Shown in pieces: positions 1,959-64,000 of a stretch of DNA of 64,000 nt. A model generated the notes under the pieces. The model searched no databases and was not told the origin of the DNA. It saw nothing but the letters and a program-made list of their open reading frames with translations. Within the stretch, counting starts at the first letter, position 1. Every line of letters starts with the position of its first letter. The stretch lies in assembly GCA_963827685.1 (NCBI GenBank), contig CAWHBU010000006.1:480001-544000 (forward strand). Direction: 5' to 3'. Source of the stretch: an uncultured delta proteobacterium (GTDB taxonomy: Bacteria; Desulfobacterota; BSN033; UBA1163). Position numbers and translations under genes: made by a program.

Positions 1959-2927
1959 TTAAATATGCAGTTCGATCACATCCCCTTCGCTGACGAGATA
2001 ATCCCGTTTGACCATTTGTCCATCGAATTTTCCAGAACCCCAGATCTTGGCATATCGAAGTTTGGCAACGAAGTCTTTATGGATAGCGGTGCTTCCCTTC
2101 TTAAGAATAACAGGCTCCGTCAGATCTGGTTCCTTCCCAGGAATTTTCGTATAGACCCGGACGATGTCGAGGATTTGATAAATCTCTTTCTTCAATTCAT
2201 CAAAATTCATTTTTTCTTTGGCAGAGATGGGCAGGATGGGGAAGGAGTCCCGGAAATGGCTCTCCAATCTCTGGTAGGCCCCCATTGCATTTTTAACATC
2301 GCATTTATTCCCAACAAGGAGTGCCCGCAGAGAAACCCATCCCGTCTCCGATGGAGGGATGGGTGCTTTCCGGAGCACCTTTATTCTCATTTCATTCAAC
2401 TGTCCAAGGATAATCTCCATCTGGAAGATGGGGTCTTCCGTCAGATCCACCAAGAGAAGAAGGGCGTCCGCATTTCGAATCAGGTTTGGGAATCCAGGTT
2501 CGATATGATCCAATTGAACCGGTGGAGTATCCACCAATTGAATCTGAAGATTTTCAAACTTCGTCATCCCGGGAATGGGCTTTTGGGTTGTGAAAGAGTA
2601 GTCACCCACCTCGGAAGAGGCATGGGTGATCTGGGAGAGAAGACTTGATTTGCCAGAATTGGGAGGGCCTAAAAGAACGACTTGAGCAGCTCCCTCTCTC
2701 TTAATATTATAGGCCTGCTCTGCCCTCCCGACGGTAGGTCTCCTCTGGAGTTCCTCCTTTAATTTGGCCATTCGGCTTTTGAGCTGTCCCCGAAGTCTCT
2801 CGGTCCCTTTATGTTTTGGGATGACCGCCATCATCACTTCGAGAGCTTTTATCTTCTCTGGCGTGGTCTTGGCCTGCTTAAACTTAAGCTCTGCCTCTAA
2901 ATATTGGGGAGTGAGATTGGCTGGCAT
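1959..2927 (-). CDS. DRG/OBG-family GTPase with C-terminal TGS domain
   Basis: MPANL..., PKHKGTE, G1 GPPNSGKSS, YSFTT, DTPP, NKCD, SAK, and TGS end YAKIWGSGKFDGQMV. Confidence 0.9.
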   Translation of the reverse strand: MPANLTPQYLEAELKFKQAKTTPEKIKALEVMMAVIPKHKGTERLRGQLKSRMAKLKEELQRRPTVGRAEQAYNIKREGAAQVVLLGPPNSGKSSLLSQITHASSEVGDYSFTTQKPIPGMTKFENLQIQLVDTPPVQLDHIEPGFPNLIRNADALLLLVDLTEDPIFQMEIILGQLNEMRIKVLRKAPIPPSETGWVSLRALLVGNKCDVKNAMGAYQRLESHFRDSFPILPISAKEKMNFDELKKEIYQILDIVRVYTKIPGKEPDLTEPVILKKGSTAIHKDFVAKLRYAKIWGSGKFDGQMVKRDYLVSEGDVIELHI

Positions 2928-2935
2928 CTCTCTGG

Positions 2936-3991
2936 TTACGATTCATAAATTTTTTCTTGCAGAAAAATCTCCAAAAATCCTGGGTCAAATTGTTTCCCCT
3001 TGTTTCTTTCCATTTCCAAAAGGATCTCTTCGAGGGCCATGGCCATCCGATGGGGTCTTAGGCTCGCCATCGCATCGAAAGCATCGGGCACAGCAATAAT
3101 CCTTGCCTCAATAGGAATGGCTTCTCCCGCCAAACCGTCTGGATATCCTCTCCCATCGAAGCGCTCGTGATGACTACGAATCATGGGGATCTTATCCTCA
3201 AAAAACTCGATCCCCTCCACAATCTTGACACCGATCAAAGGATGCTCCTGAACGATCTGATATTCTTCCGGACTTAGAGGTCCTCGTTTGCCGAGAATTT
3301 CATCTTTAATACCAATCTTACCAATATCGTGGAGGAGTGCTCCATATTCCAAAATCTCTATTTTCTCTTCTGTAAATCCTGATGAAACGGCAATCTGCAA
3401 ACTCATCCGTTTCACACGATCGGAGTGGCCCCGTGTGTAGGGGTCCTTGGCATCGATCGCTTCTGCCAGAACCTTGACCGAATCCAAATTCGCTTTCTTC
3501 AACGTACGACAAGCCTGCCGAAGGTTTTCCGTCCTCATTTCCACCAATTTCTCCAAATTTCTGTGATAAGACTCGAGCTCCTCCTCCATCTTCTTCCGCT
3601 CAAGGGCTCTCTTCACACTGAAGACCACAAGTTCCAGATCGAACGGCTTGATGAGGAAGTCCGTTGCACCCAGGTGGATCGCCTCTACCGCTATTTGGAT
3701 CTCTGGATAGCCAGTCATGATGATGAACAACATGTTTGGTTGCGCAGTCTTCACATGCTTCAGGAGTTCTAAACCATCCATTTCAGGCATCCTGATATCT
3801 GAGATAATCAGCGAAACATCCTCCTTGTAAAAATGTTTGAGGGCTTCCTTCCCGTTATAGGCTGCGATACATGGATAGCCTTCTTGAGTCAGCCTTTGAC
3901 ATATCATATTGCAGATGATCACTTCATCGTCCACAATCAAAATCCGGTCTTCCACGAATGCCCCCCTTTCTCTTTTTCTATGGATCTCCAA
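2936..3991 (-). CDS. Response regulator with HD-GYP phosphodiesterase domain
   Basis: REC domain (ILIVDDE, SDIRMP, KPF) followed by DPYTRGHS, LHDIGKIG, HHERFDGRGYPDG. Start codon uncertain. Confidence 0.93.
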   Translation of the reverse strand: MEIHRKRERGAFVEDRILIVDDEVIICNMICQRLTQEGYPCIAAYNGKEALKHFYKEDVSLIISDIRMPEMDGLELLKHVKTAQPNMLFIIMTGYPEIQIAVEAIHLGATDFLIKPFDLELVVFSVKRALERKKMEEELESYHRNLEKLVEMRTENLRQACRTLKKANLDSVKVLAEAIDAKDPYTRGHSDRVKRMSLQIAVSSGFTEEKIEILEYGALLHDIGKIGIKDEILGKRGPLSPEEYQIVQEHPLIGVKIVEGIEFFEDKIPMIRSHHERFDGRGYPDGLAGEAIPIEARIIAVPDAFDAMASLRPHRMAMALEEILLEMERNKGKQFDPGFLEIFLQEKIYES

Positions 3992-10220: not shown

Positions 10221-10813
10221 GGACGGATCAGATGATCTGCTTCCAAAAGAGACTGAGCAATATCATACATATTGGAAACAGTTCCTACTCTCAATTTCTC
10301 CTTTAATCCATAGAAATCGAGGCATGTTCCGCAGGCCAGGATCTCTACCCCCTCTTCGGATAATTTCTTGAGAGTCTCCAAGACCTCAGAACCCTCCGAA
10401 GCCAATCGAACTCCTGAATTAATCAAAATCAATCGAGAGGGTTTTTTCTCTAGATCCATTAGGGTCTTCAAAAAAGACCTCATCAGGATCGCTCCCAATG
10501 ACTCATCCCCAACACCCAGGAGATGGGAATTAATATAAACGACAACCTTTTTGATTTTCTCGTTAGGCTGGGTCACTTTCTCTCTATCCTCACTACTGGT
10601 CTTTCGAATGCGAAGATAAAAATCCTGCCCTTCCTGCTTAATTTCCACCGGACATCCTTGACTCTGAACGAACCGTTCCACATTATTACAGGAGGAAGCA
10701 TTGTCCACAATGACGATCATCTCTCCTTCCTTCAGCTGATCTAATGCCTGTTTTGTTGTCACGACAGGTTGGGGACAGGCAAGACCTCGACAGTCAATCA
10801 CCGGCATTTCCAT
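10217..10813 (-). CDS. yedF: Selenium-metabolism sulfurtransferase-like protein YedF (TusA plus DsrE domains)
   Basis: IDCRGLACPQPVV, then LG..LMRSFL, NSGVRL, ACGTCLDFY and GTVSNMY. Confidence 0.88.
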   Translation of the reverse strand: MEMPVIDCRGLACPQPVVTTKQALDQLKEGEMIVIVDNASSCNNVERFVQSQGCPVEIKQEGQDFYLRIRKTSSEDREKVTQPNEKIKKVVVYINSHLLGVGDESLGAILMRSFLKTLMDLEKKPSRLILINSGVRLASEGSEVLETLKKLSEEGVEILACGTCLDFYGLKEKLRVGTVSNMYDIAQSLLEADHLIRP

Positions 10814-10960
10814 TTCCTCCGATTCATTTTAAGGGATTGAGAAAGAACTACGGATATTATTCTACCACATATTTCCTTTTCTTTTCATAGATATTCCAGG
10901 CAGCTCTCAAAACTCAAAAGACTACCCGACACTTGTTCAAGACCAAGAAAGAAGAGCGCA

Positions 10961-12115
10961 TCACCTTTCCTGTTTGGAAATCTGGGAGACGGTTCGGATC
11001 GCGGCCTCGATGTCTGCTTCGTTGTTGAAAGCACTCAAGCCAAATCGGACTGTTCCCTCTGGGAATGTCCCGATGGTGCGATGGGCTGCGGGCGCACAGT
11101 GAAGTCCTGAACGGCAGAGGACACCGAATTCCTTTTCTAAGCGGTGGGCCACATCTGAAGGAGAAAGTTGTTCAATATTGAAAGAAAGAGTGGCAATTTG
11201 ATTTTTCTGGATTTGTGGCCCATAGCGTTTCACCCGAGAAATCTTTTTCAACCCCTCGATGAGCTTTTCAGTTAGAGTGATTTCATTTTGCCGGATCTGT
11301 TCCACTCCTTTTTCCAGGACAAATCGAATCCCGGCGAGAAGCCCGGCAATGCCAACGCCATTTGGGGTTCCGCTTTCAAAGCGGTCCGGCAAGAAGTCCG
11401 GCTGTTCCTCAAATTCTGATCGACTTCCTGTCCCACCTTGTTTTAACGGAATCATTTCCTTTTCATCTATCCGTTCACCAATAACAAGCCCCCCAGTCCC
11501 CTGGGGCCCATAAAGGCTCTTATGTCCAGTAAAAGCTAAGAGATCAATCCCATCTCTTTCAACATCAATCGGATAAGCTCCGGCCGTCTGCGCAGCATCG
11601 ACCAAAAAGAGAAGATTGTGTGCCCTTGCGATCTCCCCAACTGCGATGATTGGAAGAAGTGTTCCTGTGACATTCGAGGCATGATTGAGAACTACCATTT
11701 TTGTATTCGATTGAATCCTTCTTTCCACTTCTCCTGCGTCCAGCATACCTTCTTTGGAACAGGGAATGACGCTCAATTCGATTCCCTTCTTCTCCAGATC
11801 CCTGAGAGGCCTCATCACCGAATTGTGTTCCATGCTGCTCGTAATGACATGGTCTTTAGGTTTTAATAAACCATTTAGGGCTAAATTGATGGATTCGGTA
11901 GCATTGAGTGTGAAGACGATTCTTGATGAATCTTTGACATGGAACAGAACCGAAAGAGCCTCTCTGGTCTCATAGATAATCCTTGCGGCTTCAATCGAGA
12001 GGAAGTGTCCAGATCGGCCTGGGTTGGCCCCGACCTCCTCCATAAATTTGTTCATCGCCTCTTTCACTTGAGGAGGCTTCGGCCATGAAGTGGCTGGATT
12101 ATCGAGGTAGATCAT
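10961..12115 (-). CDS. Class V aminotransferase, cysteine desulfurase / selenocysteine lyase family
   Basis: IYLDNPATSWPKP, MEHNSV, DAAQTAG, TGHKSLYGPQG (PLP Lys), RSGLHCAP. Confidence 0.92.
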   Translation of the reverse strand: MIYLDNPATSWPKPPQVKEAMNKFMEEVGANPGRSGHFLSIEAARIIYETREALSVLFHVKDSSRIVFTLNATESINLALNGLLKPKDHVITSSMEHNSVMRPLRDLEKKGIELSVIPCSKEGMLDAGEVERRIQSNTKMVVLNHASNVTGTLLPIIAVGEIARAHNLLFLVDAAQTAGAYPIDVERDGIDLLAFTGHKSLYGPQGTGGLVIGERIDEKEMIPLKQGGTGSRSEFEEQPDFLPDRFESGTPNGVGIAGLLAGIRFVLEKGVEQIRQNEITLTEKLIEGLKKISRVKRYGPQIQKNQIATLSFNIEQLSPSDVAHRLEKEFGVLCRSGLHCAPAAHRTIGTFPEGTVRFGLSAFNNEADIEAAIRTVSQISKQER

Positions 12116-60569: not shown

Positions 60570-61070
60570 ATGAAACTTGAAGGAAGAGTTTGGAAATTCG
60601 GATCGGACGTGGATACAGATGCGATCATTCCTGCCCGCTACCTCAATCAGACGGATGCGGGAGAATTAGCCAAGCATGCGATGGAGGATGAGCGGCCTGA
60701 GTTTAAGAAAGAGGTCAAACAAGGCGACGTCCTGGTAGCCGAAAGGAATTTTGGTTGCGGATCATCCCGGGAACATGCTCCTCTTGCCTTGAAGGCAGTG
60801 GGAATCTCGTGCATCATCGCAGAGAGTTTCGCTCGCATCTTCTACCGAAATGGATTTAACCAGGGGCTCCCTCTCCTCGAATCTTCGGAGGCGTCGAAGG
60901 AGATACAAGATGGCGATCAAGTTCAAATCGATCTGACGACCGGAGAGATTTTTGATCTGACACAGCAGAAGAAATTCTTTGCAAAACCCATCCCACCCTT
61001 TATGCAGGAATTGATCGAGGATGGCGGATTGATCCCGCATCTCCGGAAAAAGGAAACCAGGAAGAGATGA
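60570..61070 (+). CDS. leuD: 3-isopropylmalate dehydratase small subunit
   Basis: DVDTDAIIPARYL, NFGCGSSREHA, SFARIFYRN. Confidence 0.95.
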   Translation: MKLEGRVWKFGSDVDTDAIIPARYLNQTDAGELAKHAMEDERPEFKKEVKQGDVLVAERNFGCGSSREHAPLALKAVGISCIIAESFARIFYRNGFNQGLPLLESSEASKEIQDGDQVQIDLTTGEIFDLTQQKKFFAKPIPPFMQELIEDGGLIPHLRKKETRKR

Positions 61071-61242
61071 CCCTGAAGGATACATGAATATATACAAATT
61101 TCTTGGCGGCTGAATGAAATCCTAAATGCATATAAGCAAGTCCGGCCCCATTTCCTCCCCCTTATCCCGGAATCCAACGACAGCATCACTTTGACAGCCT
61201 GTGCGTACGTGCTTATATTTATATAATCAAGAAGGTAATCCA

Positions 61243-61416
61243 ATGAACCGAAAGCTATTAAAATGGTTTATGATTGTATTGTTCTTGATATCAGCCCTGA
61301 CCGGGTGTTTTATACGTCATGACCGGGATTACTACTGGGATCGCGATGATCGGCACTATCATGATCGGTATGATTGGCAACATCACGATCGGGACGATAT
61401 GCACCATAGGTACTAA
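61243..61416 (+). CDS. Small His/Asp/Arg-rich lipoprotein
   Basis: GAAGG RBS, signal with lipobox MNRKLLKWFMIVLFLISALTG-C, mature part FIRHDRDYYWDRDDRHYHDRYDWQHHDRDDMHHRY. Confidence 0.7.
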   Translation: MNRKLLKWFMIVLFLISALTGCFIRHDRDYYWDRDDRHYHDRYDWQHHDRDDMHHRY

Positions 61417-61845
61417 CGAATTTTCCTCCCTCTGACTCTGAAAAGAGTCGGAGGCAACGGACCCGTCCTCCTCATCATCGAATGCAAAAATGGTCGACCC
61501 TGTCTCTGGATGTGACGAGTGGGAAAAATTTTCAATCCATACAAGATTCGCTAATCCCTTAAAGCAGGCCCTTGGTCGTGCATCTCAGCAAGAAGTGAAA
61601 TTGGGAAGTCTGGCTCTGATAATCCTTTTGGAACGAGAACATGGGAATTGGAAAAAGATCTCCCTTTACCGATCGGGGATAAAAAAAGGAATGGATACTT
61701 TCAAAAATCTAAAGAGGCTGATTAGATTGGGATGAGTTCACTAAAACTTTTTTCTATAAATAGAAACGCCCTCTTTCCTCCGCAAAAAACAAGATCATTT
61801 ATGCTGACTTAAGCAAGTTGTTTTAGAACCAACGTCCCCTTATTC

Positions 61846-62906
61846 TGCATCTCGGAGATGGATAGCCACTATGGGCGATCGGAGACGGAAGGTTTATCGA
61901 TTGTGAGGTGGTGCTTTCCTGCCTCTCAAATAACTGAAATAGACGTTGATCCTTTTATCCAGCGGGTGACGTCACGACGGATCCGTATGGAGAAGAGGCG
62001 GCGATTAGAGGAGGTCTGGGAGAAAGCGGGAGAGTCGATTGGCTGTGAGACAGTGCCTGGAGTGGAGCATGAGGCAAAGGTAATGGTGGAGGGGCTGAGG
62101 CAGATACGAGAGACGATCAAGGAGACGGAAGACAAAATTCAGGAACTATGCGAACAATTCTCGGAATATCGGCCCCTGTTGAGCATTCCTGGCTTTGGTC
62201 CTGATGTATCGGCCAAAGTCTTAGGAGCGATAGGAGATCCGGATCGATTTCAGAATGGAAAACAAGTGCTGAAGCAGTCCGGGTTAGACCTCAGTGCGAA
62301 TCGGAGTGGAAAGAATTCGGACAAGGCGATTCCAGAGATTTCCAAGAGAGGCAAGGCCGATCTTCGCTATGCACTATATCAGGCGGCCCTGATTGCCTCG
62401 ACGAGGAATCAGGATTTTATGCGCTACTATACGAGGAAGCTTCGTGGCCGGGAGAGAGAAAAAGGGGTTCATATGAAGCTGCGAGTGAAGCTATCGGCCA
62501 AAATGCTTCTGATCGCATGGACCTTAATGAAGAAAAAGGAGGCGTTTAATCCGGCTTATCTAAACGCCGAATGAAACCATTTGTCATTTTCGACGAGAGA
62601 GCCGAGAACCAACGTGGAGGCTCATTGGAGACCTCGTGCGGGACAATGCTGGGCCTCTCGCTGAACTTTGGAATCTGGATAAAGGATGATAGGCGGTCCC
62701 GCTTTGGCGGGACACACCGGATAATGATAACGCTGAGATTCAGAGTTCGTTATGGGCGAGAGATTCGTCGAAACCAAAACAACAGACTCTCTGAAGTGAT
62801 TTGACGGGAGAAGTGTTCTCAGCAACAAGCGATCATTTAGAATCTGTTGTTTTTAAAGGTTTTATTTTTTCTTACTTTTTCTCTTGACAGAAGCAATATA
62901 GGATGT
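61846..62906 (+). mobile_element. 5'-truncated IS110-family element (IS1111-like layout, long 3' non-coding end)
   Basis: ORF 61858..62574 has only the C-terminal Tnp domain (LLSIPGFG, GD..RF, SGK, ISKRG...LRYALYQAA). The RuvC-like DEDD domain is absent. The right end has TTGACA ending 15 nt before the GT junction. The left boundary is approximate. Confidence 0.85.
62588..62773 (+). ncRNA. Candidate bridge/seek RNA of the IS110-family element
   Basis: Two stem-loops with large internal loops. The loop strands match the nearby target AGAACCAACGTCCC and the element end ATAGGATGT. Confidence 0.65.
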
Positions 62907-63247
62907 CCCCTTTATAGGACAGAACGTGATGTTACGACATTAAGTTCAGCAGCGAAGCGGTTACAGATAAGGTCTAAGACGGGCTTGGATTTATCGGAGA
63001 GAAAGTTATGAGAAGCCGCTCCCTAAATTTCAATATTGCAACCCCGACCCGAGACCCCCCCTCATAAATTTAAGAAGTCTCATCAAGGTTACTTAAATAA
63101 CTTAAGAACGTCCCCATGGTTCCTCCTGCTCTTGTAAGACCTCCATCCGTCCCTCCCCTTCTGCCCTTTGCTGGGTACACCAGAAAGTAACCTTGGGCTC
63201 GTTCCGATTGTCCGAGGGTATGCCGTTATCTTTACCACAGTCAGAGA

Positions 63248-63273
63248 ATACTATAGTCTGTAGATTTTTAGTC
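63248..63273 (+). promoter_or_regulatory. C-box operator of a restriction-modification controller
   Basis: ATACTATAGTC-TGTA-GATTTTTAGTC, resembling the GACT-N3-AGTC-TGTA-GACT-N3-AGTC layout of PvuII/BamHI-type C-boxes. Confidence 0.7.
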
Positions 63274-63317
63274 TACACTGATAGAACATATATTTTGTTC
63301 TAACTCGCAAAGGAGAG

Positions 63318-63590
63318 ATGATTATGACCCCGGAAGAGGCTTTTGGTAAAGTTCTCAAAGAAATCCGGCATGAGCGTTCTCTTTCACAGGAAGAACTTGG
63401 CTTCGAGAGTGGCTACCACCGAACGTATATCAGCCTCCTTGAACGGGGGAGAAAGAGTCCTTCTCTAAATACGATATTTCAGTTGGTTGCTGCCTTAGGA
63501 GTCTCACCTTCTGAGATTCTCCGCCGAACTGAAGCTCGAATTAGTAAACTCAGCAGAAGAGGTAGCGGAGAAAGGAGAAAGACGAGATGA
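63318..63590 (+). CDS. XRE-family HTH protein, R-M controller (C protein)
   Basis: FG..LKEIR....LSQEELG..SG.HRTYIS.LERG.KSPSL. Preceded by a C-box and overlapping the REase start. Confidence 0.85.
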   Translation: MIMTPEEAFGKVLKEIRHERSLSQEELGFESGYHRTYISLLERGRKSPSLNTIFQLVAALGVSPSEILRRTEARISKLSRRGSGERRKTR

Positions 63591-64000
63591 AAATAATTAG
63601 AGTTGAGCGCTTGATCGATGCCGGGGAATTTTCTGGCACTGAAACATGGAAGACGATAGAGAAGCATATCATGGACGCTATCAAAGCTATAGAATGGCCA
63701 CCTGGCTCAGGTTCCTTCACACTTTACGACCAACCAGGTAAGGCCAGAGGCGAAGGGAGTGGTGTGAAACCAATCAAAGATGCTTGTATGGCCTATTTGA
63801 AGTCTCTTGGCTGGACCCTCGAAGCATCAGTTGATATTGCTACTTTGAAACACCCGGGTCCCATGGATGCTACCTACCCAGTCGGGGACCGCCTTTTTTG
63901 TGCAGAGTGGGAGACAGGAAATATATCTTCAAGTCACCGTGCAGTTAATAAGATGGCCTTAGGGATTCTTAAGAAGGTCCTGATAGGTGGTATATTGATT
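63587..64000 (+). CDS. BamHI-family type II restriction endonuclease (partial, runs off window)
   Basis: Not in the ORF track. MKIIRVERL...WPPGSGSFTL...GVKPIK...GPMD...EWETGNISSSHRAVNKMALG parallels BamHI WP..S.TFT, GVVPIK, GPID and EFETGNISSAHRSMNKLLLG. Confidence 0.88.
   Translation, partial: MKIIRVERLIDAGEFSGTETWKTIEKHIMDAIKAIEWPPGSGSFTLYDQPGKARGEGSGVKPIKDACMAYLKSLGWTLEASVDIATLKHPGPMDATYPVGDRLFCAEWETGNISSSHRAVNKMALGILKKVLIGGILI

Follow-up and report, generated by a model that had tools for sequence, protein, structure and literature searches.

A truncated IS110-family element of an uncultured delta proteobacterium with a probable bridge RNA gene behind its transposase remnant

Towards the right end of a 64,000-nt stretch of DNA from an uncultured delta proteobacterium (the window, G000:C6:480001-544000) lies a transposase gene that has lost its beginning and is followed by a non-coding end. 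The locus raises the question of what kind of element it once was, and whether the guides of an RNA-directed recombinase can still be read from a single decayed copy. In our reading, positions 61853-62906 are very probably a 5'-truncated IS110-family element with a bridge/seekRNA gene behind the transposase remnant. Originally about 1.75 kb long, the insertion sequence would be represented here by its 3' 1,054 bp. RNAs of this kind were described in 2024, 3'-encoded ones included (PMC11208160, PMC11187229). All positions below are those of the window, and the features of the element and its target lie on the + strand.

The transposase remnant (61853-62574) comprises the C-terminal part of the protein only and is devoid of the DEDD catalytic domain. 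Its open reading frame (61858-62574) encodes 238 aa, in which Pfam recognizes Transposase_20 (PF02371; E 1.6e-19, 70.5 bits). The DEDD/RuvC-like domain PF01548 was not found in the window copy, which is truncated at 61853 and is to be taken as the remnant of a family member and not as a complete member. The remnant is 83% identical to residues ~175-411 of the frame in genome G010, and in an alignment to six relatives the homology to intact genes starts at 61853 and is lost left of ~61852.

A second copy of the gene was not found in genome G000, where the nearest homologues are 26% identical. Neither was an intact family member detected in this 94.5%-complete assembly of 14 contigs, and a search for the N-terminal half elsewhere in the genome returned only a decayed fragment of ~130 bp at C2:462.5k. 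Four other right-end remnants are present, three of them with the junction GT-CCC(C) (C6:33666-33870, C2:1087250-1087314 and C8:61319-61347) and one with GT-CTCC (C2:343104-343339), along with two or three left-part remnants. The resulting tally of five right-part versus two or three left-part remnants stems from a search biased to the right part, and no polarity is claimed. With neither a catalytic domain nor a left end nor a -10 box, the window copy is to all appearances a dead fossil that cannot move. A different IS110-family transposase, 26% identical to that of the window, is present in at least two copies (identical matches at G000:C1:68367-68795 and C3:911899-912327).

Relatives of the element provide the material from which the missing parts can be reconstructed. 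Copies with 49-84% identity occur in seven genomes of the same class. An intact frame of 428 aa was found in one of the six same-class copies examined (L010, genome G021), the other five having stops or frameshifts. The L010 protein contains PF01548 (84 bits) as well as PF02371, reaches 164.7 bits with the NCBIfam model NF033542 (cut-off 140) and has a distant match in the IS621 transposase of the PDB (E 1.1e-12). When one genome per species was scanned, 76 further loci emerged, 48-100% identical and including the query's own record, in MAGs labelled Desulfobacterota, Nitrospirota and others. The protein family, for which 'IS110 family transposase' is the only name given, numbers 5,488 proteins at E <= 1e-20 among 8,000 scored candidates. 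With 62585-62765 as a single-sequence nhmmer query, the RNA region was located behind the gene in 63 of the 76 public loci and in all six further same-class loci, and several of the 13 misses are loci that are cut by a contig end or have a partial gene. The 5' non-coding part measures ~140 nt in relatives, and the RNA model matches the 3' side only. Within the 5' untranslated part of intact relatives, a conserved AAACCTCCTGTTAAGAG (L062 290-430; same part of L028-L032) is the complement of the ribosome-binding region immediately upstream of the ATG, and by eye it might form a translation-blocking hairpin.

The bridge RNA core (62589-62772, 184 nt) contains two stem-loops, of which the first is the target-binding loop (62596-62658) and the second the donor-binding loop (62663-62748, helices 4 and 5 of the comparative structure). 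In the minimum-free-energy fold of 62575-62910, stem-loop 1 is present together with a long third hairpin and, of stem-loop 2, the inner hairpin; the z-score of the fold, -2.49, was equalled by 0/100 shuffles. The outer stem of stem-loop 2 (62663-62678 with 62733-62748) is absent from this fold and rests on comparative analysis. For the latter, an alignment (A1) of 62 distinct sequences, namely the window copy and 61 relatives, was evaluated with RNAalifold and a hand-made structure string. The resulting structure consists of stem-loop 1 with its inner hairpin, a short closing stem, and the outer stem and inner hairpin of stem-loop 2. Over both stem-loops, 88.6% of the cells in the 62 sequences are paired, compared to 30-48% with slid partners, and 23 of 38 pairs have changed on both sides, among them 8/13 in helix 4 and 7/9 in helix 5 of stem-loop 2. 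The observed pairing was reached by 0/500 shuffles on four of five measures. The closing stem P0 (62589-62596 with 62765-62772) is paired in 82.9% of the cells of the 62 sequences versus 26-36% when slid, with AT/GC swaps. As this conserved stem encloses both stem-loops, the core was delimited accordingly.

A covariance model of the RNA (R1) assigns 176 bits to the window copy, which is near the best copies and has to be read with the copy being one of the training sequences of the model. Matches to R1 were obtained in 10 of 41 genomes searched, this genome included, where one full copy (that of the window) and one partial copy were detected. One C is missing after 62601 in the stem of stem-loop 1. 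It is kept in the other 61 aligned sequences and also in metagenome contigs of four runs (one each in X1 and X8, two each in X2 and X4). An earlier note on this DNA, made from its letters alone, is borne out by the PF02371 frame and the conserved two-loop RNA in that it placed a bridge RNA in the 3' non-coding end of an IS110-family element without its left part. Its suggestion that the third stem-loop is an extra domain had to be abandoned. This hairpin and the T-run behind it (62776-62853, from the single-sequence fold) are present in the window copy, their sequence and pairing are not common to the 55 relatives compared, and the whole stretch from the RNA core to the -35 box varies in sequence and pairing among relatives, as a variable spacer does. 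An Rfam match at E <= 1 was not obtained over 61000-64000. A scan of 61700-63100 returned two weak promoter-like sites, which is within the shuffle expectation, and no terminator-like site, and upstream of the RNA in the integrated copy no promoter-like site was found. The full-length copy of G010 is broken as well: codon 17 is a stop, and the donor-binding loop is interrupted by ~1.25 kb of inserted DNA that contains two long ORFs and is IS3-type-like by eye (L009 ~2370-3625, G010:C1).

Four putative guides can be read from the two internal loops. In loop 1, the left target guide AGAACCAAC plus GT occupies the 5' strand (AGAACCAACGT, 62605-62615) and the right target guide GGGAC the 3' strand (62640-62644). 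In loop 2, the left donor guide ATAAAGGATG (62679-62688) matches the right end plus G at nine of ten positions, and the right donor guide ATAAC (~62727-62731, from ATGATAAC at 62724-62731) is the complement of GT-TAT, that is, of the core plus 2-3 nt. These strings, as well as AGAACCAACGTCCC at 61825-61838, TTGACA at 62884-62889 and ATATAGGATGT at 62896-62906 with CCCC behind it, are all found where they had been reported.

Both target guides covary with the DNA that flanks the element. On the left, the 9 nt before GT in loop 1 were compared with the 9 nt before GT-TATATA in the left flank. At least seven of nine positions agree in 20 of 46 loci, and the mean agreement in these 46 loci is 6.09 versus 4.15 for permuted pairings (0/10,000 permutations). 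On the right, guide and flank agree on average at 3.63 of five positions versus 2.67 (57 loci, 0/10,000 permutations). These permutation tests ignore relatedness, which overstates their significance, and it is the independent variants that carry the argument. In locus L030 the guide is altogether different, TTTATGGAC, and recurs unchanged in the flank (9/9); in L010 the identical 3 nt are absent from both guide and flank. Right-guide variants matching their flanks occur in L119 (GAATGAC/GTCATTC), in L079, L080 and L082 (GGAGAAC/GTTCTCC), in L112 (GAGATAC/GTATCT), in L101 (GAAGAC/GTCTTC) and also in L099. The agreement is poor on the left in L029 (4/9) and L072 (3/9) and on the right in L107 (0/5) and L133 (1/5).

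The same variants speak against a different explanation, which takes the 3' structure for a part of the transposase mRNA that binds a protein or ends transcription and according to which the matches between loops and flanks merely mirror shared descent. Close relatives indeed have guide and target in common, which makes the permutation signal partly phylogenetic, and the guide role is a prediction from sequence that presupposes pairing between RNA and DNA. However, independent guide variants fit the flanks of their own loci with both strands and left as well as right of the core, the 3-nt deletion of L010 recurs in guide and flank, and the layout of the loops equals that of the bridge RNA as published (PMC11208160). 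We regard an mRNA element of this sort as highly improbable and retain the bridge RNA reading. The anatomy of the element, the conserved structure of its RNA and the covariation between guides and flanks are direct observations. The earlier note had derived the target guides in loop 1 and the GT core from this one copy and had named loop-flank covariation among homologues beforehand as the point on which they hinged; relatives with other loop-1 sequences have correspondingly different flanks, and both target strands follow them.

The donor side offers less variation. The third-from-last base of the right end is changed in four loci, and the left donor guide follows this change in three (L070, L117 and L120) and not in L124, which agrees with the proposed match between this guide and the right end. 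Because the donor ends hardly vary, the right donor guide is beyond the reach of covariation and can be read only as ATAAC.

The element ends with ATATAGGAT (62896-62904), behind which come GT (62905-62906) as the core and CCCC (62907-62910) as the right target half. This right junction, nTATAGGAT-GT-CCC(C), is common to relatives and other remnants in the genome. The left end reads GT-TATATA in 54 of 56 aligned relatives according to a manual count, and the copy in G010 displays a complete left junction, ...GTTGTTTTAGAACCAAC-GT-TATATATATC. The dinucleotide GT is therefore the core at both junctions (GGAT-GT on the right, GT-TATATA on the left). For the left end that is missing from the window, GT-TATCAT had been predicted, and GT-TAT was right and CAT wrong. 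A subterminal inverted repeat of ~5-7 bp, TATAT(TG), was recognized by eye, and long terminal inverted repeats are absent.

An outward-facing -35 hexamer, TTGACA (62884-62889), precedes the right end and is found in 32 of 34 distinct right ends. Its distance to the left end would be 17 nt in most of these 34 (26 of them), 18 nt in six others and 16 nt in the remaining two. TTGACA-17 nt-TATATA is a candidate circle-junction promoter that fits those reported for the IS110 family. The hexamer and the 17-nt spacing had been correctly foreseen, and the -10 box has to be changed from TATCAT to TATATA.

From these parts, a mode of action may be outlined in which RNA-guided recombination, the circle and the promoter activity are taken over from published systems by analogy. 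Intact members would encode a 428-aa DEDD recombinase and, behind it, a bridge RNA of ~184 nt with two stem-loops, each with an internal loop, inside a closing stem. The 5' strand of loop 1 (9 nt plus GT) corresponds to the target's top strand and would pair with the bottom strand left of the core, while the 3' strand, GGGAC, would pair with GT plus CCC on the top strand. In loop 2, the 5' strand would match the right end of the element and the 3' strand would pair with GT plus TA(T) of the left end. The excised circle is expected to join right end, GT and left end, and from the promoter created at this join, both the recombinase gene and the RNA that follows would be expressed. The element would finally enter a REP-like repeat by recombination at GT.

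The nature of this repeat emerged from its distribution. An intact, REP-like target repeat, ...AAGTTGTTTTAGAACCAAC-GT-CCCC, is located at 61814-61839 and includes 61825-61838. The exact 14-mer at the latter positions occurs twice in the 5.23-Mb genome, compared to 0.04 expected occurrences at uniform composition; one lies 13 nt from the element remnant, and a broken RAYT-like gene has the other as its right repeat. The 23-mer motif GTTGTTTTAGAACC[A/T]ACGTCCCC has 29 matches in this genome at up to five mismatches, a few of which are chance matches such as a tRNA-like site on C3, and some copies are inverted pairs 63-182 bp apart. In genome G002, a 26-bp inverted repeat with 100% complementarity surrounds 1,020 nt (L139), and a second one with 92% complementarity (L138) encloses an ORF of 332 aa. 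This ORF contains Y1_Tnp (PF01797; 46.7 bits, cut-off 23), and its best NCBIfam model is REP_Tyr_transpos (REP-associated tyrosine transposase) with 63.5 bits, below the cut-off of 80. As inverted motif copies flank the Y1 gene in G002, we assign the target, on sequence grounds, to the REP-type repeats that accompany a RAYT-like (Y1, HUH) transposase gene. Fragments that adjoin motif copies are all that was found of the Y1 gene in G000. The target of IS621 is a REP-type repeat as well, and REP-targeting IS110-family elements were reportedly treated by Tobes and Pareja in 2006.

Three other assignments of the repeat were dropped. A terminal repeat of the Tn3 family was rejected with PF01526 being absent from G000, G014, G002, G010 and G004 and control genomes being positive. 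The end of a DDE-transposon MITE was a working idea that was displaced by REP/RAYT after the Y1_Tnp find in G002. For an integron attC site, the copies, as seen by eye, are spread over seven contigs and not gathered in one array. In an ORF list read by eye, no shared transposase was found upstream of 15 motif copies. In genome G014 the REP motif is far commoner, with 35 matches to the window stretch that includes it, many of them identical and arranged in 228-bp inverted doublets. This genome is a case of an abundant target with no element, in that neither a transposase match at E <= 1e-10 nor a match to the RNA model was obtained. Repeat units 'a' and 'c', which are 75-85% alike between copies, were observed at 61641-61776 and 62917-63122 and also at G000:C4:17819-25717, G000:C6:545865-546096, L059 (G010) 10777-11223 and L061 (G004) 2582-2805. 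They recur in a variable stretch downstream of conserved genes and on contig C4, and unit 'c' ends in a degenerate REP motif (...AACGTCCCC).

How did the copy lose its left part right beside an intact target? Between the two lies a 13-nt stretch of no traced origin (61840-61852), delimited by the alignment with six relatives and by metagenome contigs. Contigs from runs X1 and X2 are identical to the window from 61853 on and have the letters of an intact transposase before this position. Since they run into intact transposase, untruncated and nearly identical copies exist somewhere, though outside this assembly. In the best run, the metagenome contigs leave 61442-61796 unbridged, so that the junction 61839-61853 is read from the assembly.

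One conceivable answer is that the intact target marks the scar left when an RNA-guided reaction was aborted, be it an excision that failed or a one-ended transfer of the top strand that was then repaired. With no more than 29 motif matches in 5.2 Mb, chance would hardly place a correctly oriented copy 13 nt away, and relatives with one motif between repeats 'a' and 'c' are known. Top-strand-only and direct-transfer pathways have been proposed in a preprint (10.1101/2025.10.25.684509), and, if true, such scars would record which end reacts first in vivo. The octamer GTCCCCTT is present at both 61834-61841 and 62905-62912, but the consensus of the motif itself continues CCCC-YTT, so that the shared 8 nt need not be a duplication. 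Moreover, the remnants at C2:343k and C6:33.7k are without an intact target at their breaks, left-part remnants exist too and leave no clear polarity, and the repeat belongs to a mobile RAYT system that is itself able to cause rearrangement. On balance, we consider a scar unlikely. An unrelated deletion after a rearrangement involving the mobile REP system is a candidate alternative.

It might also be asked whether the remnant is truly inert. Its bridge RNA could still be made and act in trans with the recombinase of full-length copies, or it could spread independently in the manner of ssr9 of ISPpu9, for which solo sRNA modules and circles have been reported (PMC12288879). The nearly intact core, with the R1 score of a training sequence given above, and the X1 and X2 contigs that pass from window sequence into intact transposase would suit such a role. 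The 94.5%-complete assembly, however, is without an intact family member that could supply the enzyme, its other IS110 homologues being 26% identical, and an upstream promoter-like site was not found. The 1-nt deletion affects the stem of loop 1, and from a right end without a left end no donor circle can form. An active RNA is accordingly a doubtful prospect, and the copy is better viewed as a fossil.

Comparison with known systems reveals features of more than one group. Like IS621 and the IS110 group (Durrant et al. 2024, PMC11208160), the clade has a recombinase with DEDD and Transposase_20 domains and an RNA of ~180 nt in which the target-binding loop precedes the donor-binding loop. In IS621, as laid out in that work, the 5' strands pair with the bottom strand over 8-9 nt and the 3' strands with the top strand over 4-7 nt, with the core in both; here the corresponding stretches are 9 nt and 5-7 nt, again with a dinucleotide core in both. 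Whereas IS621 carries its RNA in the left end, that of the present clade follows the gene and belongs to the right end; in addition, its two loops are enclosed by an extra closing stem and the core is GT. With 428 aa, the recombinase is longer than the IS621 chain (328 aa), and the 3' position of the RNA sets the clade apart from the IS110 group proper, with its guide RNA in the left end, 5' of the gene.

Guide RNAs 3' of the gene have been described for the IS1111 group and some IS110-type elements (PMC11208160, PMC11187229), and Siddiquee et al. mention exceptions in the IS110 group with a 3' non-coding region (PMC11187229). With the IS1111 group (ISEc11, ISPa11 and ISKpn4; Siddiquee et al. 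2024, PMC11187229), the clade has in common a long non-coding region with a guide RNA downstream of the transposase, site-specific insertion into repeats and a circle-junction promoter, which is predicted here. In IS1111 seekRNAs, as characterized there, the top-strand match is 5' of the bottom-strand match, whereas the order is reversed here and is that of the IS110 type. The proteins of that group have 330-350 aa compared to 428 aa, and its subterminal inverted repeats span 7-17 bp compared to ~5-7 bp judged by eye (PMC11187229). ISPpu9 resembles the present element in its insertion into repetitive extragenic palindromes, in its RNA gene downstream of the transposase and in solo 3' modules elsewhere in the genome, here C2:343104-343339 (PMC12288879). 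Its circles are reportedly without a hybrid promoter, whereas the -35/-10 arrangement at the junction is conserved here, and Ssr9 is reported to be dispensable for transposition of ISPpu9 (PMC12288879).

The clade mixes groups by uniting an IS110-type guide order and a 428-aa enzyme with an IS1111-type RNA at the 3' end. On the boldest reading, which we consider unlikely, this mixture would reflect a bridge RNA that moved independently from one element end to the other. Bridge/seekRNAs, their 3' location, REP targeting and junction promoters are all already published. The interest of the locus is that a single decayed copy sufficed for target and donor guides to be decoded, with a result that held when ~60 relatives were examined. 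With its many natural guide variants on a compact, stem-closed RNA, the clade provides raw material for the engineering of bridge recombinases. In G000, the REP family, the RAYT gene and the REP-targeting insertion sequence have all decayed together, and for this genome the result is an ordinary one.

The neighbourhood of the element contains further genes. The stretch 63318-64000 encodes an HTH_3 protein of 90 aa (Pfam, 54.5 bits), the gene of which shares 4 nt with the beginning of the next one, a restriction endonuclease gene of the BamHI family (PF02923, 146.9 bits) that continues beyond the end of the window. Together they look like the controller-protein/endonuclease pair of a type II restriction system. 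On the other side, a small ORF at 61243-61416 has a lipoprotein-like start (...LISALTGC), a tail rich in His, Asp, Arg and Tyr and no Pfam match, and the region 61186-61655 is 79% conserved in genome G009.
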